A stretch of DNA of 64,000 nucleotides, taken from a virus. Made by a program: the position numbers and the translations under genes. The notes below the pieces were generated by a model. The model did not search any database. It saw only the letters and a program-made list of their open reading frames with translations, and was not told where the DNA came from. Positions within the stretch are counted from its first letter, which is position 1. Each line of letters begins with the position of its first letter. Shown in pieces: positions 16,161 through 59,023 of the stretch. The stretch lies in the IMG/VR virus record IMGVR_UViG_3300022747_000001, positions 1 to 64,000 of that record, one strand, 5' to 3'.

Positions 16161-16363
16161 GACGCCACCGTGATGACAAAGGGTGAAAAGTGGCAGGCGG
16201 CCCAGATGCAAACCATCCCGAACGCCATCAGTGTCGGGCCGATGAACGAGCCTCGAACGAAGCCCGCCCCTTCTGCCACGTAGATGACCAAGCCGAGAAT
16301 GACGAAGTAGACGCCGAACAGCAGCGCAACCCCGAAGCCTAGAATTTCGAAGAAGATGTTCAT
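16157..16363 (-). CDS. small membrane protein, 68 aa
   Basis: Two TM helices. ATGA overlaps on both sides. Confidence 0.5.
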   Translation of the reverse strand: MNIFFEILGFGVALLFGVYFVILGLVIYVAEGAGFVRGSFIGPTLMAFGMVCIWAACHFSPFVITVAS

Positions 16364-16953
16364 GCTGGCACCGCCTCTGCGTCATGGCAGTTCTTGAAGG
16401 CGGCGATCGGTTGCAGCGACTTGGGCAGCTTGTAAAAGCCACGCGCTAGACCTTTGAAGAAGCACGCCATTGTGACTTGAACGTCATAGTCAGCACCGTG
16501 TGCTTTGGCGGTGTCATACGCGACATTGAGCGCAAAGCACAGCTCGCCTAGACGGGGCAACTTACCGTCAGGTGTCGCCCAGCGTGCGTTTTCCATCGTG
16601 CAAAGGCTGTGAACATCGGGCACCTCGATGCCGACTCGCATCAACTCTGCGGCGATGAAGGGGCCGTCAAAACCCATGTTGTGCGCTACCAGCAAGTCCG
16701 CCGTACTCATACGCTTGGCGATTTCTTCCGCGACGGCGTTCCACTTTGGTTCGCCAATCAGGTCGGTGTAGCTGATGCCATGAACCGCTTGGGCCATCGG
16801 GTCGATAGCACGCTCGGGGTCAATGCGAATCACATAGCGATCCACCAGCGCTTGAGTCTCCAGCTCGTAGGTGAGCATGGCGATCTCGATGATTCGGTGC
16901 CCCTTCTCTTGCTCCAGGCCCGTAGTCTCTGTGTCGAGTCCGATGATTTTCAT
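16360..16953 (-). CDS. DnaQ/ExoX-like DEDDh 3'-5' exonuclease, 197 aa
   Basis: Exo I GLDTETTG, Exo II VAHNMGFDGPF, Exo III HGADYDV. Confidence 0.85.
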   Translation of the reverse strand: MKIIGLDTETTGLEQEKGHRIIEIAMLTYELETQALVDRYVIRIDPERAIDPMAQAVHGISYTDLIGEPKWNAVAEEIAKRMSTADLLVAHNMGFDGPFIAAELMRVGIEVPDVHSLCTMENARWATPDGKLPRLGELCFALNVAYDTAKAHGADYDVQVTMACFFKGLARGFYKLPKSLQPIAAFKNCHDAEAVPA

Positions 16954-17135
16954 TCTTGCTCCTTCTCTGGCGCGACGCGCCGTCCTTCGATCGCCCAGAA
17001 GTAGTCGCACTTGCCACTGTCATTGGGCGTGAAGTTCGAATACGACTGCCACATATCATTGGCGACCGCGCGGTGGCGATAGCACTCGTTTTTGCTTGGG
17101 CATTGCCCTCCGTGACACATTGCGATGTCCGCCAT
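16950..17135 (-). CDS. small Cys-rich protein, 61 aa
   Basis: CHGGQCPSKNECYRH...C pattern. ATGA overlap downstream. Confidence 0.5.
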   Translation of the reverse strand: MADIAMCHGGQCPSKNECYRHRAVANDMWQSYSNFTPNDSGKCDYFWAIEGRRVAPEKEQE

Positions 17136-23240: not shown

Positions 23241-24071
23241 TCAGAGCGCGGGATTGAAGGTCGCTTCGACCAACTGCCGGTGTTGCATCCAACCTCGGAA
23301 GTTGCCTGACCACATATCGCCTGTCGCCATTGGGGTGGCTTGATGCTCGATCGGAGAGGCATGCAGGGGCACACCACCCACCAGTCGGTCATACAGCGCC
23401 AAGTCCTTGTCGATGTCGGGCTTCTGGCCGTCGTGGGTCAGGTAGGACACACGGGCGCAACGTGCTGCCGACAGCTTCAGGAGCAGTTCGGTGGGCAAGC
23501 TCAGTCGTTCTTCGGCCAGCACGTAAGGCAGGTGCCATTCGTCGGGGTCGATCCAGCGCGGGGTCGATTGGTCGATCGCTGCCTGCATCACCTTTGCCAG
23601 AACGAAAATCTCCGGCTGTGCATCGGGGTGCGCACGCAAAGCGAAGAAATTCTCCCACTCCGTTGCCGTCACGATGACGTGCATGTACTGGAACGGCTCG
23701 AGGATGCGGTTGGCCACCTGCTTGTGAAGACCACGCTTTTCCATGAACTCAGCGGTCGCCGCAGCTTCACGCGCTGCCTGCTGCCACGCACGCATCATGG
23801 TTTCAAGCTCTTGGCCTTCCATTTCCTCTTTGGCTTGCATGCCTGGCTGGTTCTTACCCCAGTGAATCGGCATAGCGGGGTCGGTGCGCACTTGTTCGAT
23901 CATCTTGGCCACAGGGATGGCACGAGACGACGACGCGTTGCGGCTGAAGACCCGATGGGTCATGAATTCGGCGTGGATGAACCGTGGGTAGCACAGTTGC
24001 ATCGTCGCCAGTTCAATGCCCGTGCTGGTGGAGCACGAGTATTCGATCATTTTGGCGGAGATAGTAGTCAT
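23241..24071 (-). CDS. thyX: FAD-dependent thymidylate synthase ThyX, 276 aa
   Basis: Start set at MTTISAK. ThyX signature THRVFSRNASSSRAIP (RHR-x7-S type). Confidence 0.85.
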   Translation of the reverse strand: MTTISAKMIEYSCSTSTGIELATMQLCYPRFIHAEFMTHRVFSRNASSSRAIPVAKMIEQVRTDPAMPIHWGKNQPGMQAKEEMEGQELETMMRAWQQAAREAAATAEFMEKRGLHKQVANRILEPFQYMHVIVTATEWENFFALRAHPDAQPEIFVLAKVMQAAIDQSTPRWIDPDEWHLPYVLAEERLSLPTELLLKLSAARCARVSYLTHDGQKPDIDKDLALYDRLVGGVPLHASPIEHQATPMATGDMWSGNFRGWMQHRQLVEATFNPAL

Positions 24072-24193
24072 TACTTCTTTCGAGACAGACGGACGATGAG
24101 CCAGGTGGCGGTGCCAGCACCAGCGATGAAGCCGATGATGGCAGCGCTCACCACCCACTCAGCGATGGATGAGAAGGTGATGGTGGCAATCAT
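24071..24193 (-). CDS. micro-ORF, 40 aa, single TM (not in ORF track)
   Basis: Hand translation: MIATITFSSIAEWVVSAAIIGFIAGAGTATWLIVRLSRKK. ATGA overlap upstream and TAATG overlap downstream. Confidence 0.4.
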   Translation of the reverse strand: MIATITFSSIAEWVVSAAIIGFIAGAGTATWLIVRLSRKK

Positions 24194-30340: not shown

Positions 30341-30916
30341 TCACGCGGCAGTCTTCATACCGCGATAGATTGCCAAGGCTTGCTGGAGCTGTTGTGAGTC
30401 CAAGCCGGCGTTGATTGACGCTACCGCGTCCGCCAAGTGCTCGTTCACGTTCATCGGCACCATCTTGCCTTTGAGCTTGCGCATACGCCACGGCGCATCA
30501 GGGAACCGACCCATTGCCCACTCGATCATTTCACCTTTGGTGGCAGAGCGAATGCCAGTGGCTTTGAACTTGACCTCGGCGGGGAACACTTGGATCAGGG
30601 GAATTGGGCACGCTGCCAGCACGCCAGTCACCAGACCGGAGTTGAAGTTCGCCGCTGCGTAGCCTGCGGGGTTGCAAAACGGAATCTCACTGATGGCAAA
30701 CGAGGCGTCCTCACACGCGTCCACCATGCCTTGACGCACCTCACGGGCACGACGCAGGTCGTCCGACTGCTTGATGACGCCCTTCTTCGATTCGCTTTCC
30801 GTCTCGATGCAGATCAGATCGTCCACTACCCACTCCATTGATGTCACGTCAAGCGTGGCTTTGCAAATACCCCAGTTCGAGGTTGACGGGTCCATCCCGA
30901 CGATTCGGATTTTCAT
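30341..30916 (-). CDS. ruvC: RuvC-like Holliday junction resolvase, 191 aa
   Basis: N-terminal IVGMDPSTSNWG (the RuvC GxDPG-type first Asp), Glu in ISEIPF, and NEHLADAVA near the C-terminus. Confidence 0.7.
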   Translation of the reverse strand: MKIRIVGMDPSTSNWGICKATLDVTSMEWVVDDLICIETESESKKGVIKQSDDLRRAREVRQGMVDACEDASFAISEIPFCNPAGYAAANFNSGLVTGVLAACPIPLIQVFPAEVKFKATGIRSATKGEMIEWAMGRFPDAPWRMRKLKGKMVPMNVNEHLADAVASINAGLDSQQLQQALAIYRGMKTAA

Positions 30917-31446
30917 AATGCTGCCTTTCTAGTTTGCATTTTCTTGATTTGAGTGACTGTGGCAGTCTTGATGCCGTACTTCTCGGCCAGTTGCCTTCCG
31001 ATTCCATGCTTGCCAGCGTTGGCAGCTGCATGAATTTCGCGAACCTGCTCATCCGTCAACTTTGTTCGAGGGTGTCTCTCGCCAATGATTCGCGTGCCAT
31101 GTCCGAACTGATCTCTCATATTGTCCACATGAGTTGACCACTCAAGATTGGCGACGGTGTTGTCGTTCGGAGTGCCGTTCTTGTGGCGACTCTCCGTGCC
31201 TTCTGGCCGTGGGCCTACGAACGCTTCAAGCACCAGTCGATGAACCCAGCGACGGTTATGCCGTTCGCCTGGCCGTTTTCTACCCAACTCCACAACGACG
31301 TAACCCTTCGGCGTGATCGTGCCACCTAGAATCTTCGGTTCGTCGGCGCGTCCGTGACCATTGCCTTTGCGCCAGCTTCTGACACGCCCAAGATTCGACA
31401 CTTCGTAGTCAGGGTTCTCCACAACTGGCCGCCATTCTTCTTTCAT
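30913..31446 (-). CDS. HNH homing endonuclease (NUMOD4 + HNH_3 + C-terminal HTH), 177 aa
   Basis: EWRPVVENPDYEVSNLGRVRS (NUMOD4). HRLVLEAFVG...RHKNGTPNDNTVANLEW (HNH). Confidence 0.85.
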   Translation of the reverse strand: MKEEWRPVVENPDYEVSNLGRVRSWRKGNGHGRADEPKILGGTITPKGYVVVELGRKRPGERHNRRWVHRLVLEAFVGPRPEGTESRHKNGTPNDNTVANLEWSTHVDNMRDQFGHGTRIIGERHPRTKLTDEQVREIHAAANAGKHGIGRQLAEKYGIKTATVTQIKKMQTRKAAL

Positions 31447-38678: not shown

Positions 38679-38692
38679 TCATTGGTGACTTA
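38679..38692 (-). promoter_or_regulatory. operator-like motif copy
   Basis: Plus tcattggtgactta. Its TAA is the stop of 38690-39496. Confidence 0.5.
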
Positions 38693-39496
38693 GCCCAAGT
38701 CGCCCAACAGATCGTCGAGTTCTTCGTCCAGTGCAGGTGCTGCGACCTTGGCGGCACGCGGAGCGGCCTCTTCGATCACTTCAGCATCGGTGCTGGCGGC
38801 TGGCAAAGCGCGAGTGCTGGGGCGGTCAGAGTGCGCAGCGGGCAAGATGCCAGCCACGTTGTTGATCGCCGACAACGCTTTGCGTTTTTGCTCGTCGGAC
38901 TCTTGCTGCACGTACTCGTCCAGGTTGGCGAGCTTGCTGTATGCAGCTTTCGGCACGGCTTGCTTCTTGGGAGAAACTTGCACGGCGTACTTGGTGTTCA
39001 GACCCTTCCCCTCACGGGTGATGACGAACACTTGCGCTTCGTCTGGATCGAACATGGAGGCGGCCCACTCTTCAACAGCATCGACCAACTGGCCAAACGC
39101 GGTTGCCTTGATTTCGAGAATCTGAGGGGTGTTGGGGTCTTCGCTGTCCAGAGCCAGCACATTCATCAAGAAGCTGCGGCCTGCTTTGGCTTTCTTGAGC
39201 AATTCGACCGTTTCGTCGTCACCGGCAGCGTGTTGAGCGCGGTTCAGACCTTCGCAGATCGGGCAAGGTTTGCCATAGATCGCTTCGTTGCAAGGGTACA
39301 CGGCTTGAATTTCGTCGGCGGCATTCTTGATGTAATGCTGGCCAAAGTCGTGATACCACACATGCTCTTCGCCTTTACGCCAGCCTTGCAGCAAGATGTA
39401 GCGGTTCGAGCCAGGTTGGGGCTTGATCGTCTTGTCTTTCGACTTCAGAGCGGCCTTTTTCTGTTTCATGAGTTCAAGAAGTTTCGAGGTATCCAT
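38690..39496 (-). CDS. ssDNA-binding protein, T4 gp32-like, 268 aa
   Basis: Zn-type cluster H...YPCNEAIYGKPCPICE and an acidic C-terminal tail DEELDDLLGDLG. Located between the FEN gene and the mediator-like gene. Confidence 0.55.
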   Translation of the reverse strand: MDTSKLLELMKQKKAALKSKDKTIKPQPGSNRYILLQGWRKGEEHVWYHDFGQHYIKNAADEIQAVYPCNEAIYGKPCPICEGLNRAQHAAGDDETVELLKKAKAGRSFLMNVLALDSEDPNTPQILEIKATAFGQLVDAVEEWAASMFDPDEAQVFVITREGKGLNTKYAVQVSPKKQAVPKAAYSKLANLDEYVQQESDEQKRKALSAINNVAGILPAAHSDRPSTRALPAASTDAEVIEEAAPRAAKVAAPALDEELDDLLGDLG

Positions 39497-39559
39497 TTGA
39501 TTTTTCCTAGTTTGGTTAGTTGGGTTGATGCTTTTGAGTTTTACGTCTTGAGCACTTAC

Positions 39560-39581
39560 ATTATAGTTCATCCGTGACTTA
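39560..39581 (-). promoter_or_regulatory. operator copy immediately upstream of -10 TATAAT
   Basis: Minus strand reads TAAGTCACGGATGAACTATAAT. Confidence 0.5.
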
Positions 39582-39603: not shown

Positions 39604-40479
39604 TTATTGAGGGCGAGCGTTCTGGAACGCAGCTTTCGCACGGGCACCGAGGTTTTCGGCTTCGTTCTTGGCTTCCATGACGCGCATGGCGCCCTTGTAT
39701 CCTTCGCGGCGGTCAGCTCCCATCTGGATCATCATGTCGCGACGATCAGCCAGGGATGCGACCAAGCCCTTGTTGATGCTGGCGATCGTGTCCGCTTCGA
39801 TGACCGCGTTCTTGGCTTTGAGCCAGCGCGGGTCGAGCTTGACGCCGTTTTCCACCATCTTCTCAGTGACCTTCTCACCGCCGGCAGCCAGGGACTTGCG
39901 AATCTCGTCGTACAGCTTGGCTTCCAGCACGTCAAAGCGCACCTTCAGGCGAGCGTGCTGCGCCTCTGCATACGCCGCTTGCGTACCGTAGTAGGCACGC
40001 AGACTGCTCTGCTCCATCATGGCGCCATCCAGCGTCGCTTCCGTGAGTTTGGTGTCGCGGTTGAACTGGTTCACGTCCACGAAGTATTGCAACTTGGCGC
40101 CGGCCGTCTGCGGCACGTCTTCGCTCAGTTCAGACGCATCGGCGACATCGGCAAAGTCAGCAGTCTTGGGTTCCACCACGGGTGCGGGGGCGACCGTCTC
40201 CTTCACAGGTGCAGCTTTCTTGGCCACTTTGGGAGCTGGGGCAGGTTCCGGTGCTGGCTCGGACTGGGGTTCGGGTTCAGCTTGCGCGACTACCTCATCC
40301 AACTCGTTCAGGTCTTCCAGATCGTCCAGCTCGCTGGCGCTGACAGGTTCGGGTTCGGCGGGCTTGACGGTCTTGGCGGGAGCCGGTGCGGTGCTGGCAA
40401 TGCCAGTTTCTGCCTCCAGCTCATCGAGCAAGGCGGCGATTTCGTCGTCGTCAACGGCGATTTGAGGGTTCGATGACAT
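39604..40479 (-). CDS. hypothetical protein, 291 aa, acidic N-half; possible UvsY-like recombination mediator
   Basis: The ORF itself is solid. The UvsY-like idea rests on position next to the SSB gene and a loose resemblance of the C-terminal helical half. Confidence 0.6.
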   Translation of the reverse strand: MSSNPQIAVDDDEIAALLDELEAETGIASTAPAPAKTVKPAEPEPVSASELDDLEDLNELDEVVAQAEPEPQSEPAPEPAPAPKVAKKAAPVKETVAPAPVVEPKTADFADVADASELSEDVPQTAGAKLQYFVDVNQFNRDTKLTEATLDGAMMEQSSLRAYYGTQAAYAEAQHARLKVRFDVLEAKLYDEIRKSLAAGGEKVTEKMVENGVKLDPRWLKAKNAVIEADTIASINKGLVASLADRRDMMIQMGADRREGYKGAMRVMEAKNEAENLGARAKAAFQNARPQ

Positions 40480-40565: not shown

Positions 40566-43500
40566 TCAGGACAAAACATCGGCAACTTGTTTGAACACTG
40601 CGTCCAGAACCTCTTGCTTGTCGGGGTCAAAGCCGATTTGCTGCGCGTTCAGTCCGCAAACGATGGTGGCGTCCAGCACGGGGTCATAGAAGGTCTTGCC
40701 CACCATTTCACCCGCCCCACCCTTCAGCCCTGGCACGAAGCGCTTGATCGTTGCCGACCCAAGTGCCACGATCACCGCAGGCTTGATGAGTTCCAGCTCC
40801 TTGTTCAACCACTGTGAGCAGCCGTTGATCTGCCCGTTGGTCAGGAACTTTTCAGACTTCTTGGCCTTCACCAGCGTGGTGTAGTAGCCCTCCGCCACGT
40901 TCAGCCCTGCATTCTTGATGGACAGCTTCACGTACTGAGCGGCATCGCCCTCGAGCAGCTTGTCCTTCTTTTCCTCCTGCCAGGTCGGGCAGTCCGACAC
41001 CACCATGAACTTCACGGTGGACTTGGCACGGGGCGCGGGGTGCGGTGCGTCTTTCAGGTCACAGCCATCGCAGCGCTTGAAGTCTTGAATCAGGTGAATT
41101 ACCTTGGCACGCAAGAATGATTCGCCCAGATCGGTCGTGCGATCCGCCTTCACGTTGTCGATGATGAGGCCAGGCATCAGCTCCATCTGATCTTTGCGGC
41201 GACTGAAGTGCTTGGCGGGCAGCTCTTTGGCGTCCAGCTTGGCGTAGGCACCCACCAGCCGCAACCGCTCGACCACGGTGGCATTGACCTTGGAGCCTGG
41301 TTCAGCGGCAGCCAGCGCGAACTCTTGCGGCGAACTGAAGACGCCCTTGACCGGCGTGGTGTCGTCTTTTTCCCACACCTCTTCGGTGGAGCCGTCACGC
41401 TTTTTCTTGATCTTGGCCACCTTCCAGTCTTGGTTGCGCTCACGCAGCTCCACGATACGCTTGGCGGTGTTCTCACTGACCCCTTTGATGGACGAGAACG
41501 GCGCCAGAATTGTCTTGTCGTCAGGGATGGTGTAGCGGTAGCTGGACAGGTTGATGTCGGGAGGACTCACCTCGATGCCGCACTCACGCGCATCCTTGAC
41601 CAGCCCTGGCAGCTTTTCTTCGTCCACGATCGACATGCAGGCGGCGAAGTATTCAGCGGGGTAGTTCACCCGCAACCACATCGTCCAGTAGCTGATGATG
41701 GAATACTCGACCGCGTGGGAGCGGTTAAAACCGTAGCCTGCGAACGCTTCGATCTTGTCGAACAGTCCACCAGCGGTGCGCTCGTCCATGCCGACGTTCT
41801 TCTTGCAGCCCTGGTTCCACTGCTCACGCATTTCGGCCATCTTGTCTTTGTCTTTCTTGCCCATCGCTTTGCGCAAGTGGTCAGCTTCCGCACGCGTGAA
41901 GCCCGCCAGATCGACCGCCACCTGCATCACCTGCTCCTGATAGACGATGACGCCGAAGGTGGCCTTGAGCGCGTTCTCCATCGACGGATGGTCGTAGTAC
42001 GGCTCACGAATGCCCTTCTTGATCGCGACGTAATCATCCATCAGACCCGAGTCCATCGGGCCTGGACGGTACAGCGCGGTCGCGGCGGTAATGTCTTCAA
42101 AGGTCAGCGTGCCCCCTGTGGCCAGGTCGCGCAGCAGCTTTTTCATGCCAGGCGATTCGAACTGAAACACGCCCGTGGTGTCGCCTCGACCGAACGCTTC
42201 CATCACGTCGGGTTGCTCAAGGGGCAGCGCCAGGTAGTCCACCGTGATGCCATGACGGTCTTTGATGAACGACTTGGCAATCTCCATCACGTCGAGTGTG
42301 GACAGACCCAAAATATCCATCTTGACCAAGCCCCAGTCTTCGACCGTGCGCTTGTCCCAGTTCACCACCGGCGCGTCTGCACGCGTCTCCACCACGGCTC
42401 GATTGACCAGCGGCTCACCGGCCACCACCACACCAGCGGCGTGACGACCGTAGGCACGCATCGCACCCTCCAGATTCAAGGCGTGTGCCCAAATCTCCGG
42501 TTGGTCGTCGCGGAACTTGTCGATCTCCGGCACCGCTTTCGCGGCGTCGGTCAGCGTGAACGATTGACCGTGCTCTTTGGGGACGAGTTTTGTCGCGGTC
42601 AGCTCGATGCCATTCAGACCGTACATGCGACCAGCGTCACGCAGTGCGGAGGCACTCGCTAACGTCGAATAGTTGCTGATGCCTGCCACGCGGTCTTTAC
42701 CGTACTTGGCTGTCAGGTACTCGATGACCATGTGTCGCTTGGACGACATGAAGTCCAAGTCGGCGTCTGGCAAGTCAAGACGTTCGGGGTTGATGAAGCG
42801 CTCGAAAAGCAGGTTGAATCGAATCGGGTCAACGTCAGTGATGCCAATCAGGTACGCCACCAGCGAACCACCGACCGAACCGCGTCCTGGCCCCACGATG
42901 ATGCCGTTCTCTTTGGCCCAGACCACGAGGTCTTCCACCAGCAAGAAGTAGCCGGCAAACCCCATCTTCTTCAAGACCGACAGCTCATACGCCAGGCGCT
43001 CCTGATACACCTTCATTTCGGTGTTGTCTGGCTTGTGGCCCAGCACCTCGGTGCCAAACCGACGCTTCCAGCCCTCGATGCACTTTTTGCCCAGCGCCAC
43101 GAACTCGTTGGGGGCCATCAGAGGCAGTGAGACGGGTTGCTTGTCGAACTTGTACGCACACCGTGCCACCAGATGCTCAATGTTCTCCAGCCCTTCTTTC
43201 CAGCGCTGCGCGGTCTTGATACCGTCCAGCTCTGCAATGCGCTTGGAGCTGGCTACCGCACGCTTGGCCAAGTCGTTGGGTTCCTGGATGTAGAAGTCCT
43301 TGACGTACTGCACCGAGCGATACCGAACATCCATCTTGGTGTTGGTCACAATGCACTTGAGCACCTCCAACGATTCAGCGGCTTGCGCGTTGCGGTAAAA
43401 GGTGGGATAGGTGACGAGTGAAGGCATACCTGACACGTATGCGAACTCAGCGGCCATCGCATTGAGGCGATCAAACAGCGGCGTGTTGATGGGCACCAGC

Positions 43501-44018
43501 TCCGAATAGAGGGCGTCTTTGCCGAACTTGGCTTGCAGCTCGTTGATGATCGCGCCACAGTCAGGCATGTGGTACAGACTGAACAGATCGCCAGTGGAGA
43601 ACACAACGCCCTCCAGCTCCATGATCTCGTTCATGCCGACTCGGGCGTGGTAGTAGAAGAATTCCTCGCTGAACGCTTTGGACAGCAGCTTCATGAGGCT
43701 GTGAATGCCACGCTCATCGACCACGTAGGCTTTGAGCATGAACATGGGGTTGGGTTTTTCTTTCTCGCCGGACGCTTTGGGCGGTTTGCGGTAGGTCGGG
43801 TCTGCCACCACACGGATGCGACAACCGATCACCGGCTTGATGCCCGCCTTCTTGCAGCGGTTACTGAAGTCCACCAGACCGTTCAGCGACATCGTGTCCA
43901 TCAGCGTGACGGACTCGTAGCCCTTTTCTTTCGCATCTGCCACCAGATGTTCGATCTGGAGCATCGACTCGCCCAGACTGAAGTCAGAGCGCGAGCCAAG
44001 CATGTGATTTAAATTCAT
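40566..44018 (-). CDS. dnaE: DNA polymerase III alpha subunit (DnaE) with C-terminal family-4-UDG-like domain, 1150 aa
   Basis: N-terminal PHP domain. Pol III alpha core (GRGSVGGSLVAYLIGITDVDP, YRPGPMD, FNRSHAVEYS). The C-terminal 168 aa begin at CDGCDL and have the UDG-family-4 layout. Confidence 0.95.
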   Translation of the reverse strand: MNLNHMLGSRSDFSLGESMLQIEHLVADAKEKGYESVTLMDTMSLNGLVDFSNRCKKAGIKPVIGCRIRVVADPTYRKPPKASGEKEKPNPMFMLKAYVVDERGIHSLMKLLSKAFSEEFFYYHARVGMNEIMELEGVVFSTGDLFSLYHMPDCGAIINELQAKFGKDALYSELVPINTPLFDRLNAMAAEFAYVSGMPSLVTYPTFYRNAQAAESLEVLKCIVTNTKMDVRYRSVQYVKDFYIQEPNDLAKRAVASSKRIAELDGIKTAQRWKEGLENIEHLVARCAYKFDKQPVSLPLMAPNEFVALGKKCIEGWKRRFGTEVLGHKPDNTEMKVYQERLAYELSVLKKMGFAGYFLLVEDLVVWAKENGIIVGPGRGSVGGSLVAYLIGITDVDPIRFNLLFERFINPERLDLPDADLDFMSSKRHMVIEYLTAKYGKDRVAGISNYSTLASASALRDAGRMYGLNGIELTATKLVPKEHGQSFTLTDAAKAVPEIDKFRDDQPEIWAHALNLEGAMRAYGRHAAGVVVAGEPLVNRAVVETRADAPVVNWDKRTVEDWGLVKMDILGLSTLDVMEIAKSFIKDRHGITVDYLALPLEQPDVMEAFGRGDTTGVFQFESPGMKKLLRDLATGGTLTFEDITAATALYRPGPMDSGLMDDYVAIKKGIREPYYDHPSMENALKATFGVIVYQEQVMQVAVDLAGFTRAEADHLRKAMGKKDKDKMAEMREQWNQGCKKNVGMDERTAGGLFDKIEAFAGYGFNRSHAVEYSIISYWTMWLRVNYPAEYFAACMSIVDEEKLPGLVKDARECGIEVSPPDINLSSYRYTIPDDKTILAPFSSIKGVSENTAKRIVELRERNQDWKVAKIKKKRDGSTEEVWEKDDTTPVKGVFSSPQEFALAAAEPGSKVNATVVERLRLVGAYAKLDAKELPAKHFSRRKDQMELMPGLIIDNVKADRTTDLGESFLRAKVIHLIQDFKRCDGCDLKDAPHPAPRAKSTVKFMVVSDCPTWQEEKKDKLLEGDAAQYVKLSIKNAGLNVAEGYYTTLVKAKKSEKFLTNGQINGCSQWLNKELELIKPAVIVALGSATIKRFVPGLKGGAGEMVGKTFYDPVLDATIVCGLNAQQIGFDPDKQEVLDAVFKQVADVLS

Positions 44019-45639: not shown

Positions 45640-46839
45640 TTACGAACCGAAGATGCGTTGAGCCAAACCGTCCACCACTTCGCGGTCGATCTTGGACAGC
45701 TTGTTGATGAACGACAGCGTGATGCCTTGACGGAACGAGCCGCGCATCACACCAATCTTGGCCGAGTAGATCAGCGTGCGTGGCGAGATCACATCACTGA
45801 TCTTGGCGCCGTCATACGCATCACGCACCAGCGTGGCGAACTCGACCAGCTTGTCGGCGTCCTCTTTGGTCAGACCCACTTGGTTCTGAAGAATTTGGCT
45901 CTCGGCGGGCTTCTTCATGTACTTCTTGTGGATGACCATGCCGAAGCGGTCGTAGTTGGCAGAGTTCTGCAAGTTGGTGCCCTGATACAGACCCGTCTCG
46001 TCACCGCTGCCGTTGGTGTTGCCCGTTGCGCAGAAGCGGAAATTCGCGTGCGGCTTGATGATGCGGTTCGCTGCGTCAGCCTCTTTAATCATCAGTGACT
46101 TACCTTCGAGGACAGCCTGATAGACCGAGAGCACAGAAGGCAGCGCGAAGTCGTATTCGTCAGCCACGTACATCCAGCCGTTTTGCATGGCCAGCGGCAA
46201 CGGGCCAAGCTCGAACACCGTCTCACCACCCTTGACCGTCCACTGACCGACGATGTGGCTCTCTTCGGTGTTCACCGTGTGCTGGACACGAATCATCGGA
46301 CGGTTGGTACGGGCGGCGATCTGCTCGAACAGTTCGGTCTTACCGGCACCCTTGTGGCCCCAGACGTAGCATGGGTAGCGCAGCTCGAGGGCGAGGATGA
46401 CGTTCTTCAACTCGTCGATGTCATAGACGTAGTTGTCCGAGACGGTTGGCACGAAATCACCGAAGTCGGTGTTGGCCAGCACGGTGATTGGGATGGGGTC
46501 GCCCTTCGCGTTCATGGCCGACTTGACCTTGCCCAAGTTGAACACCTCATTGAGCGCCTTCTTCAAGATGCCGCCCTTTGGCACGAGTGCGCTCACATTG
46601 GCGGCGACGTTCTCGGTGCCGGCCATTGCCACCTTGGTGGTGTCATCGGCAGCGGGGGCAGCTTTGGCAGCGTTGCGCTCGGCGATTTTCTTTTGAGCCA
46701 GCTCCGAGAGCAGTGGCGCATCGGGGAAGCGCTCCTTGTACTGCTCGATCGTGACCTCTGGATGATCCTTTTGCAAGTGCAGCTGGATGGCGTGTGCTTG
46801 CGCACCGCAAATGGAACAAGTGATTTTTCCGTCTGACAT
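45640..46839 (-). CDS. MoxR/CobS-like AAA+ ATPase, 399 aa
   Basis: N-terminal Zn-like CSICGAQAHAIQLHLQKDH. Walker A GHKGAGKTE. Walker B YVADEYD. Confidence 0.8.
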   Translation of the reverse strand: MSDGKITCSICGAQAHAIQLHLQKDHPEVTIEQYKERFPDAPLLSELAQKKIAERNAAKAAPAADDTTKVAMAGTENVAANVSALVPKGGILKKALNEVFNLGKVKSAMNAKGDPIPITVLANTDFGDFVPTVSDNYVYDIDELKNVILALELRYPCYVWGHKGAGKTELFEQIAARTNRPMIRVQHTVNTEESHIVGQWTVKGGETVFELGPLPLAMQNGWMYVADEYDFALPSVLSVYQAVLEGKSLMIKEADAANRIIKPHANFRFCATGNTNGSGDETGLYQGTNLQNSANYDRFGMVIHKKYMKKPAESQILQNQVGLTKEDADKLVEFATLVRDAYDGAKISDVISPRTLIYSAKIGVMRGSFRQGITLSFINKLSKIDREVVDGLAQRIFGS

Positions 46840-46927
46840 TGAGACACTCCTTTATTCGTTGATATTCAACGGGTTGCTAAAAAATTTCGACATTCAAATG
46901 ATAACCAGCAATCGCAGGGCTAACAAG

Positions 46928-46941
46928 TCATTGATGACTTA
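46928..46941 (-). promoter_or_regulatory. operator-like motif copy
   Basis: Plus tcattgatgactta, between the vWA and AAA+ genes. Confidence 0.45.
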
Positions 46942-46960
46942 ACCCTGTGATCTGTCCTGC

Positions 46961-49054
46961 TTACGGGTTCATCAGCAGGTGGCGCAGCTCCTTGATGACT
47001 GCGGCGGGCAGCTCCTCAACCGAGTGCAGCACGATGTTCTTGGGGTAGAAGGACTTCACCGCATCGGACTCGATGCCAATGCCGACCACTTTGACGCCGG
47101 CAGCCGACACGTTGCGCACCACCTCCTTCAGATGACGCTCCAGATCGCCACGCGAACCGGCAGCAGCCGGATAGCCGTCACTGAGCACGATCAGAATCTT
47201 GGACTCCTCGCGACGTGCCATGAGGCGACGCGCAGCGTTCTCCACCGACTCACCATCCACGTTGGAGCGCAAGATGTTGGTGTGCGGCAGCCAACCGAAG
47301 CGCTCCTTGACATTGGCGGTCAACCGCTCGTCGTAGCCCTTCAGGATGGGCATGTAGATGCCTTCGGCGCGTGAGAAGCGAATGCCGGTCTTGGACTGCT
47401 GCTCGTACATCTCCTTTTGCGCTCCGCCGATGTCCTTCGTCGTAAAGCCGATCACCTCATTCTTGATGTTCAGCCGCTCCAGCACGGATGACAGCGCATA
47501 CGCTGCCTGGCACGCGGTGTGAATCTTGGAGCCGCCCATTGAGCCGGAGCAGTCCACCACCAGCTCGATCGCCACGTCCTTGCTGGTCGATTCGTGCTTG
47601 CGGGAGAAGACACGCGCATCACCGACCGCCAGTCGAGACAGGTTGGCCGCGTGCAGTCGGCCGGACTTGTGCCCGTGTGAGCGCGTTGCCAGCGATCGGG
47701 CGCTGATGGCGCGTTCAAGGTCTTTCTGAAGCGGCGCGACCATGTGGTCAACCTTGTCGGCCATGCTCTTGGTCATGCGGGCTTCATAGCCAGTGCCGAT
47801 CGGCAGCTTCTCCACCACGTCATAGTCTTTACTGAAAGGCAGGTAGGTGGCGTTGGTGGCCGATGCCAGACTCTGCTCGGAGATGACGCGCGACATGGCT
47901 TCATCAAACGCGTTGGTGCCATCCTTGTCCATCGCCTCCCAGATCGGTGCGGAGCTTTCCAGATCGGACTCCTCGTCACCCGCATCGGCATCGGTGGGGT
48001 CAGCGCCCTCGCCGATCTCGCCATCGTCATCGCTTTCTTGCGGTGCGGCCTCGATCGTGTCTTCGCCGTCAGCAGGTTCCTCTTCGGGTGCGGGGTCAGG
48101 GTCAGACGGGGTGGGTTCCTCCTCGTCTTTTTCGTCGTCGTCTTTTTCCTCCTCAGAGGGGGCTTTTTCTTCTTCTTTTTCCTCCTCCTTCTCAGGCTTG
48201 CTGGGCTTGCCGGCTGACGGGGCGGGCTTTTCTTCCTCCTCCTCGTCGTCCTTTTCTTCCTCTTTGGACTTGCTCTTGCCGGCACCTGACGCCTTTTCCG
48301 CCTTGCTTGGTGCGCTGCTCTTGCTGGCTTTGCCAGCGCCCTTACCTGCCGCACCGCCCGAGCTGGACTTCGGACTCTTCTCGCTACCGCTGCCGCCGCC
48401 CTCGCCGTCTTCGCTCAGACGTTTACCGATCTCTTCGGCCAGCGCCAAGCAGTCTTCGGTGCAGGTGGCCGCTTCGATCTTCGGCTGCAAGTCTTTGATG
48501 CGTTCGTAGATGGGGGCAACGGTCTTCCACTTGTCGTCGGCGTTCATGAACTCTTTGAACACCTGCTGGCCCGACATGGCGCGAATCATCGGCACGATCA
48601 GCGTTTGAATGACGCCTTGCGCATCGCCCGCACGCGCTTTTTCTTCAAGGCGGGGCACCACGAACTTGTCCAGATAGAACTTGCCGGTGTTTGCCAGGTT
48701 GTAGGCTGAACCGCTGAACCGCTTGGCCATCTCCTTCTCGATGCGCGGGTCTTCCAGCGCGTTGAGCATGAAGCCGATCTGACGACCCTGGCGATTGGCT
48801 TTACCCATCAGCGGGAAGTTGGTGAAAAGGATGTGCGCAACCTCGTGGTCAAGAAAGCCTTGAATGGCGTTGATGAGGTCTTCGGTGGCGTTGTCGGGCA
48901 GATACGGCAGATTGACCAGAACCGGCACACCGTTGTGGTCAGCGCGAACGTAGGCTTGAACGCCCTGCTGCGTGACCTTGATACCTTTGCCAGAGAGCAG
49001 TTGGGTGATCTTCACCACTGACTCACGCAAAATAAAGACGCGATCGTTTTTCAC
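46961..49054 (-). CDS. CobT-like vWA-domain protein, 697 aa, GTG start
   Basis: GTG start with RBS TAAGGAGAAAC. Central 150-aa acidic low-complexity block. C-terminal vWA domain with MIDAS VVDCSGSMGG. Confidence 0.8.
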   Translation of the reverse strand: MKNDRVFILRESVVKITQLLSGKGIKVTQQGVQAYVRADHNGVPVLVNLPYLPDNATEDLINAIQGFLDHEVAHILFTNFPLMGKANRQGRQIGFMLNALEDPRIEKEMAKRFSGSAYNLANTGKFYLDKFVVPRLEEKARAGDAQGVIQTLIVPMIRAMSGQQVFKEFMNADDKWKTVAPIYERIKDLQPKIEAATCTEDCLALAEEIGKRLSEDGEGGGSGSEKSPKSSSGGAAGKGAGKASKSSAPSKAEKASGAGKSKSKEEEKDDEEEEEKPAPSAGKPSKPEKEEEKEEEKAPSEEEKDDDEKDEEEPTPSDPDPAPEEEPADGEDTIEAAPQESDDDGEIGEGADPTDADAGDEESDLESSAPIWEAMDKDGTNAFDEAMSRVISEQSLASATNATYLPFSKDYDVVEKLPIGTGYEARMTKSMADKVDHMVAPLQKDLERAISARSLATRSHGHKSGRLHAANLSRLAVGDARVFSRKHESTSKDVAIELVVDCSGSMGGSKIHTACQAAYALSSVLERLNIKNEVIGFTTKDIGGAQKEMYEQQSKTGIRFSRAEGIYMPILKGYDERLTANVKERFGWLPHTNILRSNVDGESVENAARRLMARREESKILIVLSDGYPAAAGSRGDLERHLKEVVRNVSAAGVKVVGIGIESDAVKSFYPKNIVLHSVEELPAAVIKELRHLLMNP

Positions 49055-49070
49055 TAGGTTTCTCCTTATG

Positions 49071-49096
49071 TCACAAATGACTGATAACGTAATGTA
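49071..49096 (-). promoter_or_regulatory. -10 TACATT followed by operator copy
   Basis: Minus strand reads TTGTTC-N17-TACATTACGTTATCAGTCATTTGTGA. Confidence 0.5.
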
Positions 49097-49130
49097 GACG
49101 GTGAACCCAGGAAGAACAACCGTAACCACA

Positions 49131-55968: not shown

Positions 55969-56439
55969 TCACCACGTTCCCCAGCTCTCGCCGCGATCGG
56001 GTTCTGGCCCTGGTTCCTCGCTAACGATCTCGTTGAGTTCATCCACTACGAGCATGTCAGCCTCCATGCCGCGAATCTTGTCCACGTCCAACATGGCAGT
56101 CAGTTCGCTCAAGAACGGCGTGCTGCGGTAATGCGATTGAATGGCGCCGATCAGTTCCACCTCGGTGAAGCTGCGTGCGCGGGCGTGAAGGCCGATTGTT
56201 GAGGGCGTTCGCTGATAGCCGCGCCCCATCTTGGATTTGATGAGCTTTTCGGCGGCTGCGTTGCACGCACGCAGCGAACTATGGCTTTCGCACATCGTCT
56301 CGCCCAGCGTGCCGATCTTGCCCCAGCGCTTAACCAGTACGAAGCGCTTGTCATCGGGGTTCCAGAACTCGATGACCTCGTAGAATTTGGTGCCGCCGTC
56401 GTGTTCAAAATATCTCGGCTCAGTTGTAATTTTCTTCAT
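55969..56439 (-). CDS. WGR-domain protein, 156 aa
   Basis: GGTKFYEVIEFWNPDDKRFVLVKRWGKIGTLGE is the WGR signature. Confidence 0.7.
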   Translation of the reverse strand: MKKITTEPRYFEHDGGTKFYEVIEFWNPDDKRFVLVKRWGKIGTLGETMCESHSSLRACNAAAEKLIKSKMGRGYQRTPSTIGLHARARSFTEVELIGAIQSHYRSTPFLSELTAMLDVDKIRGMEADMLVVDELNEIVSEEPGPEPDRGESWGTW

Positions 56440-56513: not shown

Positions 56514-57611
56514 TTAGCCCATGCACTTGAGTTTGATCCTGGCGGCCGATGAAGGTGTCAGTGCTTCGGCTTTGTAAAAGCACTCACGCACCACGCTGGC
56601 CGGCACCTCGTTGGGGTCTTTGTCTTTGGGCAAGAACGCAATCCGAGCCATCAGACCAATCTTGCGCACCTCCAGCGCTGCCATCACTGCATCGCGGGTG
56701 GCGCGTTTTTCACCGTCCCACATGAATGTGACGATCTTCAGACCCTGAGCCTTCAGACGCATCAGCATGCCCAGCTGACTGGTGTCCCCACCCACCGACA
56801 GATGCTTGCCAAAGGAGCCAACCGGCACGACTTCACGCAGGTTGGGGTCAGCATCCAGTGCCAGTTTGATGGCGATCACGTCAAAGGCGCCCTCACCCAT
56901 CACGATGTGCTCCGCTCCCCGTGCGTTGTGCCCGTTGTAGAGGTACGTACCAGTGGAGGCAAAGCCAGGCGGGAACAGGTACTTCTTGTCAGCCGTACCC
57001 GTGGTGTCGCGCCCCTGAAAACTGACCAGTTTGCCTTCCAGATCAAAGATCGGAATCAGCACGCGATGAGCGTAATCCTGAGCACGGCGCTGCCCTTCAG
57101 GGTCGGTGAACCAGAACTTGCCCTTTTGCGAGAAGCGCAGGTGAAAGTAATCGGCGACATCCGCTGTGATGCCGCGCTTTTCCAGATACTTCAGGTTGCG
57201 GCCGTTGTGAGGCAGTGCGATGGACTCGGGCAGCTTCAGCTCTTCTGACATGGCCACCGGAGCGGACTTGCGCACGACCGGCTTCCAGCCCTGCTCTTCG
57301 GCGACATGCTTGACGTGTTCCACGACTTCGCGTGTTGTGGCCGAACCCAAGTGTGACTTGATGAACTTCCACTTGTTGAACTTCGTCTCGCAGTCACCGG
57401 AAAAGCAGTTACCCAGCCCCGATTCGGCGTTCAGGTACACCTTCCAGTTCGAGCCGCCACAGCAAGGGCATTCCTTGACGTTCAGCTGCACGCCACGCGA
57501 GCCTCGCGTGACTTTGTAGTCGATGCCCTCGCGATCGAGCCATGCTTCCATGTCGATCGTCTCCAGGGCCTCTTGCAGCTCCTCGTTGCCCGTGCCGCCG
57601 AACTTACTCAT
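56514..57611 (-). CDS. DNA primase (Zn-ribbon + TOPRIM), 365 aa
   Basis: CPCCGGSNWKVYLNAESGLGNCFSGDC. TOPRIM motifs MGEGAFDVIA and WDGEK. Confidence 0.85.
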   Translation of the reverse strand: MSKFGGTGNEELQEALETIDMEAWLDREGIDYKVTRGSRGVQLNVKECPCCGGSNWKVYLNAESGLGNCFSGDCETKFNKWKFIKSHLGSATTREVVEHVKHVAEEQGWKPVVRKSAPVAMSEELKLPESIALPHNGRNLKYLEKRGITADVADYFHLRFSQKGKFWFTDPEGQRRAQDYAHRVLIPIFDLEGKLVSFQGRDTTGTADKKYLFPPGFASTGTYLYNGHNARGAEHIVMGEGAFDVIAIKLALDADPNLREVVPVGSFGKHLSVGGDTSQLGMLMRLKAQGLKIVTFMWDGEKRATRDAVMAALEVRKIGLMARIAFLPKDKDPNEVPASVVRECFYKAEALTPSSAARIKLKCMG

Positions 57612-59023
57612 TCGCGGCGCAGGATGGACTCGATGAACTTCATCTTGGCAATGTCTTGCTTGATAAAGAGCGTAAAGCCGGACTCCTGGTTCCGTGATGC
57701 GGCAAAGTACAGTCGTGCTTCGCCTTTGGCGCGTTCTTCGTCCGTGATGTTGATTGAGATCATCAAGTCCACGGTTCGCACCTTGTTGAAGTCTTCGGCA
57801 ACGTGTTCGGCTTTGGCCACCGTTGCTTTGAAGCCCTCGCGGTTGGTCTGCGTGGCAGTGAGCATCGCAACGTCCATTTGCTGCGCGATCGCCCGAAGGT
57901 CCACGTACACGCTCTTGGAGTTTTCGATCACATCGTTGTAGCGAAAGTTCGGCGCCATGATGTCGGCGTAGTCAACCACCACGAGGTCATAGCGAATGCC
58001 TTTGGCAGCGTGACGATCCAGCAAGGCTCGCAGCATGTTCGGGGTGAACGTGCCCGATGGGTATTCGAAGATGTCCAGACGGCCGGTGTGCCCCTCGAGC
58101 GCGGCGACCTTTGCCTCGACATCCTTGATGTGCTTGCCCAGCTCCTTAATCATCGTGTCGCTCACCGATGCGTCCAGACGTTCAGCGACGATGCTGGCGG
58201 CCACTTCGAGCGTGATATAGGCGACGTTGAATTTCTTGAGCGATGCGGCCTTTGCAAAGCCGATCAGCGCGGTGGTCTTACCTGCTTTGGCACCACCCAT
58301 GATCGTGGCCAGCTCTTTGCGACCCCAGCCACGGTGATACAGAATCTCATCCAGCTTCAGGTGTCCGGTGGTGATGCCGCGCGGCGGCTTGGTGCCGGCC
58401 GCATCGTCCAGACGCTGCGCAGTACGCAAGCTGATGTTGGAGTAGTAGTCGTAGGCGCCACCATCTTCGTTGATGCCGATCTCGATGGCCTCTTTGATGT
58501 TGCGCTCGATCTTTTCGAACTCACCCTTTCCGATCAGATCGACCGAGCGCAGAATGGCTGCGGTGGTCGCCTGGTGGCGGGCGAATTTGACGATCTGCTC
58601 TTCCAGATACTCGCGACCGGAGAAGTCTTTGGTCGCGTAGACCGCGTTGAAGAACTCCTTGACGGTCGGCAGGATGTCCGGCTTGATGATCTTGGCAGCG
58701 TAGTCGTCCTTGATGCGTTGCGCCATCAAGGGGCGATCCGGCAACGCCTTGTAGTTGTCGAGAAACTTCTTGGCGATATTGACGAGCACCGCCTCACCAG
58801 CGTTCTCGAAATACTCAGGGCGCAGCAGGTGGCCCACACGGTTCATGAACTCCAGATCGCGAACAGCGAACGTGGCTACCCGTGTCTGAAAGTCGGCGTC
58901 GAAGTCAAACTTCTCCACGCTCTCATCGAGAACGGTCGGCTCTGATGCCGTACCACCCTCGAAGGAAGCGCCGACCATAGCGGCGATGGAACCCTCCACC
59001 GCACTGGTTGCGGTTTCGGTCAT
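57608..59023 (-). CDS. dnaB: DnaB-like replicative helicase, 471 aa
   Basis: Walker A GGAKAGKTT. Walker B LVVVDYADIM. ATGA overlap with the primase gene. Confidence 0.9.
   Translation of the reverse strand: MTETATSAVEGSIAAMVGASFEGGTASEPTVLDESVEKFDFDADFQTRVATFAVRDLEFMNRVGHLLRPEYFENAGEAVLVNIAKKFLDNYKALPDRPLMAQRIKDDYAAKIIKPDILPTVKEFFNAVYATKDFSGREYLEEQIVKFARHQATTAAILRSVDLIGKGEFEKIERNIKEAIEIGINEDGGAYDYYSNISLRTAQRLDDAAGTKPPRGITTGHLKLDEILYHRGWGRKELATIMGGAKAGKTTALIGFAKAASLKKFNVAYITLEVAASIVAERLDASVSDTMIKELGKHIKDVEAKVAALEGHTGRLDIFEYPSGTFTPNMLRALLDRHAAKGIRYDLVVVDYADIMAPNFRYNDVIENSKSVYVDLRAIAQQMDVAMLTATQTNREGFKATVAKAEHVAEDFNKVRTVDLMISINITDEERAKGEARLYFAASRNQESGFTLFIKQDIAKMKFIESILRRE

Follow-up and report, generated by a model that had tools for sequence, protein, structure and literature searches.

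The polymerase gene and its domain layout

We analysed a window of 64,000 nucleotides, positions 1 to 64,000 of the IMG/VR virus record IMGVR_UViG_3300022747_000001, which carries on its minus strand a gene for a DnaE-type DNA polymerase of family C. The record is complete (105,979 bp, with direct terminal repeats), and the host of the gene is a complete temperate phage of ~106 kb. An original prediction, made from the sequence of the window, had described the C-terminal end of this polymerase as a domain resembling a uracil-DNA glycosylase (UDG) of family 4, with altered catalytic motifs, in place of the usual OB and tau-binding C-terminus of DnaE. We found that the tail has a complete UDG fold, whose substitutions suggest that it most likely does not excise uracil. 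The segments of the gene, with positions in the window, are as follows.

40566..44018 (-): dnaE-type polymerase gene, 1150 codons plus stop (open reading frame list and translation)
43497..43991 (-): PHP domain, residues 10-174 (Pfam PF02811, 68 bits)
41796..43094 (-): Pol3 catalytic core and fingers, residues 309-741 (Pfam PF07733, 264.5 bits; PF17657, 181.7 bits)
41421..41579 (-): (HhH)2 region (HHH_6), residues 814-866 (Pfam PF14579, 47 bits)
41352..41435 (-): Lys-rich insert, residues 862-889, 28 residues (gaps in BLASTP alignments; predicted beta-hairpin)
41166..41189 (-): QMELMPGL, residues 944-951, candidate beta-clamp-binding motif or structural connector (conservation)
40569..41123 (-): family-4-UDG-fold domain, residues 966-1150 (profiles, structure models, Foldseek)

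The N-terminal 865 residues match NCBIfam TIGR00594 with 728 bits against a cut-off of 434, which places the protein in the Pol III alpha superfamily, and a match to PHROG 405 spans residues 5-1149. Within the Pol3 segment, Pfam assigns residues 309-571 to the Pol III alpha core and residues 574-741 to the fingers; the order PHP, Pol3 core, fingers, (HhH)2 is the DnaE-type layout of family C. The protein is not a UDG-PolA fusion of the SPO1, SP15 or N4 types, in which a UDG domain stands at the N-terminus of a family-A polymerase. The Lys-rich insert is predicted by AlphaFold2 to form strands at residues 865-872 and 878-884, with a predicted local distance difference test score (pLDDT) of ~97, and it is missing from the Y. 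pestis pMT1 and Klebsiella homologues in the BLASTP alignments.

The (HhH)2 region is the final segment in common with E. coli-type DnaE. Every NCBIfam DnaE equivalog alignment ends at about residue 865, with all equivalog cut-offs missed, and a 92-sequence profile of the C-terminal 411 residues was aligned by hhalign only to residues 697-894 of E. coli DnaE (alpha). Because these alignments stop at ~865 and at E. coli 894, the OB domain and the tau-binding C-terminal domain (CTD) are, on sequence comparison, absent from the phage DnaE, as the original prediction had supposed; Pfam gave no match to any OB family in the polymerase. This architecture was already published in 2014, when Timinskas, Balvociute, Timinskas and Venclovas described DnaE proteins of Y. 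pestis and Salmonella plasmids, termed DnaEX, in which OB and CTD are replaced by PF03167 (NAR 42:1393, PMC3919608). The phage protein is a further member.

A complete UDG fold in the tail

The Pfam family UDG (PF03167) was matched at residues 1002-1101 with 25.3 bits in the whole protein, against a cut-off of 24.3, and with 29.6 bits (expectation value E 8.5e-7) in the isolated tail. When compared with PDB sequences by phmmer, the tail matched the T. thermophilus UDG 1ui0 (E 3.8e-8) as well as T. maritima TM0511, and a 27-sequence profile of the tail reached the S. tokodaii family-4 UDG 4zbx over the entire domain (E 1.5e-15). The NCBIfam models of family-4 UDG and UdgX were matched at E 1e-10 to 1e-12, yet far under their curated cut-offs (NF040953, 40.9 bits against 250; TIGR00758, 38.4 against 125.3; TIGR03914, 39.8 against 190).

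Two AlphaFold2 models were evaluated, one of residues 956-1150 (pLDDT 90.2, predicted template modelling score (pTM) 0.89) and one of residues 740-1150 with 92 homologues (pLDDT 95.5, pTM 0.84). The longer piece, comprising the HhH region and the UDG-like tail, is predicted to fold as one confident unit. A Foldseek search with the tail model returned 1l9g, 1ui0 and 4zbx at template modelling (TM) scores of 0.80-0.82 (E ~1e-12), with 181 of the 192 residues of 4zbx aligned; the whole alpha/beta UDG fold is intact over the complete domain. Pfam, phmmer, the profile, both AlphaFold2 models and Foldseek all bear out the family-4 layout that had been proposed, and the outcome that would have spoken against it in these profile and structure searches, a fold other than UDG, did not occur. 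The placement of the last 168 residues at CDGCDL was also exact (Cys983 of 1150). The fold itself reaches ~17 residues further towards the N-terminus than the Cys pair; it starts near residue 966 and opens with a helix at 967-981. A divergent OB fold was considered as another identity for the tail and is ruled out by the structure matches to UDG folds.

Altered catalytic and iron-sulfur motifs

The positions in the tail that correspond to the catalytic and iron-sulfur (Fe-S) motifs of family-4 UDG are listed below.

41061..41072 (-): Cys983-x2-Cys986, first and second Fe-S ligand positions (matching the CxxC of 1ui0, 1vk2 and 4zbx in alignments)
41040..41042 (-): His993, clade-specific conserved His, inferred candidate for a replacement fourth cluster ligand
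40980..40997 (-): altered motif A, SDCPTW for GE(A/G)PG(E) (alignments to 1ui0 and 4zbx)
40863..40877 (-): TLVKA, residues 1048-1052, for N-x-V-K-C (alignments)
40818..40820 (-): Cys1067, kept fourth-position Fe-S cysteine (alignments)
40647..40649 (-): Asn1124 at the motif B His position (HMMER alignment to 4zbx)

All the elements named in the original prediction were present on re-translation: the Cys pair, FMVVSDCPTWQEE (residues 1004-1016), GLNVAEGYYTTLVKA (1038-1052), C..WL..EL.LIKP.VIVALG (1067-1087) and GLN (1122-1124). In motif A, which reads SDCPT at residues 1008-1012, Asp1009 stands in for the catalytic Glu and neither flanking Gly remains; Leu1022 takes the place of the stacking Phe. 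The T-N-x-V-K-C region has become T-T-L-V-K-A, with Thr1048 for the uracil-reading Asn and Ala1052 for the third cluster Cys, and H-P-(S/A) of motif B has become N-A-Q. The predicted changes of Glu, Asn, His and Cys were right, but GLN had been taken for the counterpart of HPS; in the HMMER alignment to 4zbx the His falls on Asn1124, not on Gly1122, and the counterpart is NAQ. None of the canonical family-4 residues at these three sites (motif A Glu, uracil-reading Asn, motif B His) is present. For family-4 enzymes and UdgX, water activation is assigned to the motif A Glu and hydrogen bonding of uracil to Asn91 and His178 (PMC10359453); E53 and H178 are the equivalent residues of the phiLo polymerase (PMC13697223).

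These changes are not particular to the phage. Among 70 tail-like representatives, to which all clade counts refer unless stated, none has Asn at position 1048, where the residue varies between T, S, A and G, and 66 lack His at position 1124 (counts across the clade: N 44, S 11, T 9, H 4). Cys1052 is likewise absent in 66 of the 70, and Asp1009 is retained in 62. In a tree of 79 representative clusters, the 66 that share these changes form one clade, which a branch with 99% support in the Shimodaira-Hasegawa approximate likelihood ratio test (SH-aLRT) separates from 13 canonical-like sequences; the latter include stand-alone UDG4, one family-A fusion and two intein-bearing DnaE with nearer-canonical tails. 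Since both uracil contacts are lost across a large and old clade, uracil excision or sensing is unlikely, and so is the uracil sensor that had been suggested as one function of the tail. A further suggestion, a decoy against host UDG or UDG-based restriction, was rejected, since we found no feature that speaks for it.

Three of the four Fe-S ligand cysteines are kept in the phage (Cys983, Cys986 and Cys1067), and Cys983 and Cys986 are invariant in a homologue alignment (A1) that has 40 invariant columns; some sublineages have no cluster cysteine at all. The tail possibly binds an Fe-S cluster through these three residues, perhaps with His993. This His is present in 44 of the 46 representatives that have the Cys triad without Cys1052, but the covariation is not counted as evidence, because the tree shows the loss of Cys1052 and the gain of His993 to be a single evolutionary event, with one independent pair on supported branches. 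The Cys3-His cluster is put forward as a hypothesis.

Conservation of the tail

Over 112 homologues, mean identity was 71% in the tail, which aligns without gaps, compared with 80% in the palm and 58% in the PHP domain, a pattern that points to purifying selection on the tail. The conserved residues line the former substrate cleft: Asp1009-x-Pro, Tyr1045-x-Thr1047, Lys1051 and Gly1122-x-Asn1124. If the tail were a vestige, in decay and without function, of a UDG fusion that had once been active, the loss of the canonical catalytic and uracil-binding residues would be expected, as would the disappearance of all cluster cysteines in some sublineages. We give this explanation very little credence, since the strong conservation of the tail, at an identity above that of the PHP domain, effectively rules it out. 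The tail is also kept in hundreds of metagenomic, phage and plasmid homologues, even where a homing endonuclease splits the gene, and its fold is predicted with confidence.

The conserved cleft bears on a second alternative, in which the tail is a glycosylase, or a reader of lesions or modified bases, with changed specificity that scans the template ahead of the C-family polymerase, in the manner of the active N-terminal UDG domain of SP15/YerA41/phiLo family-A polymerases. Asp1009 keeps an acidic residue at the motif A Glu position, the most conserved residues are still on the ancestral cleft, and the smaller pocket residues (Asn to T/S/A/G, His to N/S/T, Phe to L/M/G) could admit another base. 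The ancestral fusion was probably active, given the intein-bearing DnaE with nearer-canonical tails (73-81 bits in Pfam), and an active polymerase-coupled UDG has been documented (PMC13697223). We nevertheless regard this alternative as unlikely. Both uracil-contacting residues are missing clade-wide, the variation at position 1048 is unlike that of a specificity determinant, and the NCBIfam UDG4 scores lie at 38-41 bits against cut-offs of 125-250. In addition, at the sensitivity of Pfam HMMs the complete genome gave no match to PolX or an ExoIII-type AP (apurinic/apyrimidinic) endonuclease that would complete repair, nor to the modified-thymidine genes that were sought, the dCMP-deaminase family PF00383 and ThyA. 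We hold it quite unlikely, too, that a rewired and enlarged UDG pocket, with Asp in motif A, a motif B of the Asn-Pro type and possibly a [4Fe-4S] cluster on Cys3-His, reads or excises a non-uracil lesion, an AP site or a modified base on the template directly in front of the C-family replicase. If true, Pol III-type enzymes would have a form of template surveillance coupled to replication, similar to the uracil read-ahead of archaeal PolB or to the UDG-PolA of phiLo and YerA41.

Distribution of the fusion

The fusion is widespread. A word-based search returned 167 proteins with the DnaE plus PF03167 architecture, many of them on contigs of 105-112 kb; when stand-alone relatives of the tail were sought in this way, the matches were all fragments of the fusion. 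An exhaustive profile search gave 7818 matches, with 75 at E < 1e-30 among 50%-identity clusters. Carriers include Burkholderiales genomes (Undibacterium, Duganella, Herbaspirillum, Ralstonia and Paraburkholderia), and among the cultured-phage relatives are the Pseudomonas phage nickie group, Stenotrophomonas ANB28, Xanthomonas JGB6 and Rhizobium RHEph10-like phages. The fusion was found in ~1000 plasmid records, among them Y. pestis pMT1, Salmonella pHCM2, the SSU5-type phage-plasmids of Klebsiella/E. coli and the ~110-kb phage-plasmids of A. baumannii. The phage tail is 61% identical to the tail encoded in ~110-kb Acinetobacter baumannii plasmids. Some of the 167 proteins are labelled 'uracil-DNA glycosylase family 4' by the Joint Genome Institute (JGI).

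Divided and interrupted versions of the gene were also observed. In the A. baumannii plasmid NZ_CP150098.1 (locus L004, 3251-5088) dnaE is split, and a NUMOD4 homing-endonuclease gene lies directly before a piece of 421 residues that holds the HhH region and the UDG-like domain, for which the RefSeq name is 'uracil-DNA glycosylase family protein'. The same piece recurs as many metagenomic proteins of 380-420 residues (PHROG 4335), and in a Klebsiella plasmid DnaE is encoded as pieces of 790 and 406 residues (locus L003). Three intein-bearing DnaE have a C-terminal UDG domain: P0259 (1840 residues), P0264 (1587) and P0218 (1528). In two of the three the third cluster Cys is retained and the Pfam UDG score is 73-81 bits; P0264 also has GEAPG. 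The intein-bearing DnaE may be similar to an ancestral fusion that was still active.

Genome context and a candidate clamp-binding motif

The polymerase gene lies in a replication and recombination module with genes for a class II ribonucleotide reductase, SbcCD, a UvsX/RecA-like recombinase, a 5'-3' exonuclease, a gp32-like single-stranded DNA-binding protein (SSB) and a sigma factor. The same module holds a CobS/CobT-like pair, an integrase, guanylate kinase, an ATP-dependent ligase, DnaG, DnaB, PhoH, ThyX and a DnaQ-like exonuclease. Positions in the window are 38690-39571 for the gp32-like SSB, 56514-57611 for DnaG and 57608-59023 for DnaB. In the complete genome, at the sensitivity of Pfam HMMs, there was no match to DnaN or another clamp, to a clamp loader, or to a trimeric dUTPase.

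Between the HhH region and the UDG-like domain lies RRKDQMELMPGL (residues 940-951; 41166-41198 (-)), in which R940, Q944 and P949 are each conserved in at least 90% of 92 homologues. The Q-x-E-L-M/L-P-G-L motif is kept family-wide, including in remote representatives, and QMELMPGL resembles QADMFGVL, the internal clamp-binding motif of E. coli alpha. The consensus clamp-binding motif of family C is QL[S/D]LF, located after (HhH)2 (PMC3919608). QMELM has Met, not Phe, at position 5, and AlphaFold2 predicts an ordered helix there (pLDDT ~95). We treat QMELMPGL as a candidate clamp-binding motif, on the strength of its likeness and conservation.

This motif is part of a third alternative, in which the tail is mainly a protein-docking domain that replaces the tau-binding CTD. 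The partners to which it would couple the polymerase would be the DnaB-type helicase, the primase, the gp32-type SSB or the DnaQ-type exonuclease, and the host beta clamp, reached through QMELMPGL, would provide processivity. The tail occupies the place of OB and CTD, and the net positive charge seen in canonical UDG4 is gone from it; genes for DnaB, DnaG, a gp32-like SSB and a DnaQ-like exonuclease are present in the phage, while no tau or clamp was found in its genome. The motif itself stands just after the HhH region, the usual place of the clamp motif in family C. Its Met at position 5 and the ordered helix predicted for it, where an exposed loop would be expected, speak against such docking, and conservation in the old active-site cleft is not expected of a generic docking surface. 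We would assign this alternative a small chance of being correct.

Several neighbouring genes were recorded. Immediately downstream of the polymerase, between it and the gp32-like SSB gene, is a gene for a protein of 291 residues (39604-40479 (-)) that has no Pfam family and matches PHROG 4969 and 9245; it is a candidate replisome accessory or mediator protein. Upstream of the polymerase are a CobS-like AAA ATPase of 399 residues and a CobT/VWA protein of 722 residues (45640-49129 (-)). A free-standing homing endonuclease gene with NUMOD4 and HNH_3 lies within the module at 30913-31446 (-). The DnaQ-like (RNase_T) exonuclease (16360-17010 (-)) and the ThyX-like thymidylate synthase (23241-24158 (-)) are both far from the polymerase, and a small WGR-domain protein (55969-56439 (-)) adjoins the primase-helicase genes.

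Proposed role of the tail

The reading that we favour, and consider probable, is that the tail has a non-catalytic role in handling template or fork DNA or in replisome docking. The DnaE tail would descend from a family-4 (Fe-S) UDG that replaced the OB and tau-binding domains. With the Asn, the His, the stacking Phe and one cluster Cys lost, it would no longer excise uracil. It appears to sit at the OB place of cellular DnaE, straight after the HhH region and QMELMPGL, and would act there as a non-catalytic nucleic-acid or replisome-docking module that holds or guides the template strand or fork DNA for the polymerase of a phage that seems to lack a clamp, a clamp loader and tau. A non-catalytic DNA-handling or docking role is favoured because the tail replaces OB and CTD after the HhH region and is modelled as one confident unit with it. 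The inactivated UDG domain of N4-type polymerases, proposed as a processivity module, provides a precedent. Among the functions offered in the original prediction, 'inactive DNA-binding module' comes nearest to this proposal.

Some observations weigh against it. Across the 70 representatives the tail is near neutral, with a median isoelectric point (pI) of 6.9 and a net charge of 0 (pI 7.7 for the phage tail), in contrast to the basic values (pI 9.0, net +6) of nine canonical family-4 UDGs; with this charge apparently lost, the case for a plain role in DNA binding or processivity is weaker. Motif A still has an acidic residue, Asp, and the motif B consensus of the clade is G-x-N-P, which recalls the N-P-S of family-2 MUG. 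The Asp and the G-x-N-P together therefore leave some room for a catalytic or lesion-binding function. Finally, conservation centred on the cleft is equally compatible with a ligand pocket and with a DNA-binding surface. Establishing the role of the tail would show how a Pol III-type replicase with neither clamp nor tau achieves processive, coupled synthesis, be it through handling of the template, docking in the replisome or a cryptic surveillance of bases, and why viral polymerases of families A, B and C have repeatedly recruited UDG folds.

Comparison with known systems

The closest described systems are the DnaE of pMT1, pHCM2 and the SSU5-type phage-plasmids, which have the same order of PHP, Pol3, HhH and UDG-like domains. 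By BLASTP, the phage DnaE is 35% identical to the Y. pestis pMT enzyme (E 0; residues 10-1150 against 7-1173) and 32% identical to the C-terminal piece from a Klebsiella SSU5-type phage-plasmid (E 2e-52). The Klebsiella piece, which has ~990 plasmid relatives, is 63% identical to the pMT enzyme. As in the variant of Timinskas et al., PHP-Pol3-HhH is followed by PF03167 with no OB or CTD, and the homology reaches through the tail. The gene order is also common to the phage, pMT1 and Klebsiella, with a CobS-type AAA ATPase upstream and a 5'-3' exonuclease and recombinase downstream. The phage and pMT1/SSU5 enzymes have in common the Q-x-E-L-M motif, the motif A Asp, the loss of the uracil-reading Asn and the G-x-N motif B. 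They differ in that no cluster cysteine is left in the pMT1/SSU5 type, whereas the phage DnaE keeps Cys983, Cys986 and Cys1067 together with His993, and in the 28-residue Lys-rich hairpin (862-889), which the pMT1/SSU5 type lacks. The carrier of the phage gene encodes an integrase and is not known as a plasmid, while the pMT1/SSU5 relatives are phage-plasmids. What this phage adds is one more member, on a branch with three cluster cysteines and a conserved His. The 2014 paper covers the architecture only and does not mention the motif changes (PMC3919608); our literature searches on DnaE and UDG found no report testing the function of the tail.

Compared with stand-alone UDG4 and UdgX (1ui0, 1l9g/1vk2, 4zbx and 6ail), the tail has SDCPT for GE(A/G)PG, T-T for T-N, K-A-K for K-C-P and N-A-Q for H-P-S/A, and its net charge is ~+1 against ~+6 in stand-alone UDG4. 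Fusions of UDG to polymerases of family A are known, and the papers that describe them make no mention of a C-family UDG fusion (PMC10201439, PMC13697223, PMC3201878). N4-like polymerases have an inactivated family-4 UDG domain at the N-terminus (Czernecki et al. 2023, PMC10201439; PMC3201878), for which a processivity or structural role has been proposed (PMC10201439). Both are phage replicases with a family-4 UDG fold in which the catalytic residues have not been kept, but the present polymerase is of family C, not A, and carries the domain at the opposite terminus; the N4 domain lacks one helix and a hairpin, while the phage tail is complete. In SPO1-like and SP15/YerA41/phiLo family-A polymerases the N-terminal UDG is active and removes deoxyuridine (dU) in front of the fork (Missoury et al. 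2026, PMC13697223). In these domains the Glu of motif A and the His of motif B are present, whereas the phage tail lacks both uracil-contacting residues; the phages concerned have T-hypermodified DNA with PolX and a ligase, and in the present phage only a ligase was found. The UDG of poxviruses, D4/E4, is part of the polymerase processivity factor (PMC3201878, PMC13697223) and resembles the phage tail in that a UDG fold is physically coupled to a viral replicase. Unlike the tail, D4/E4 is a separate, active, family-1-like UDG that A20/A22 bridges to a family-B polymerase.

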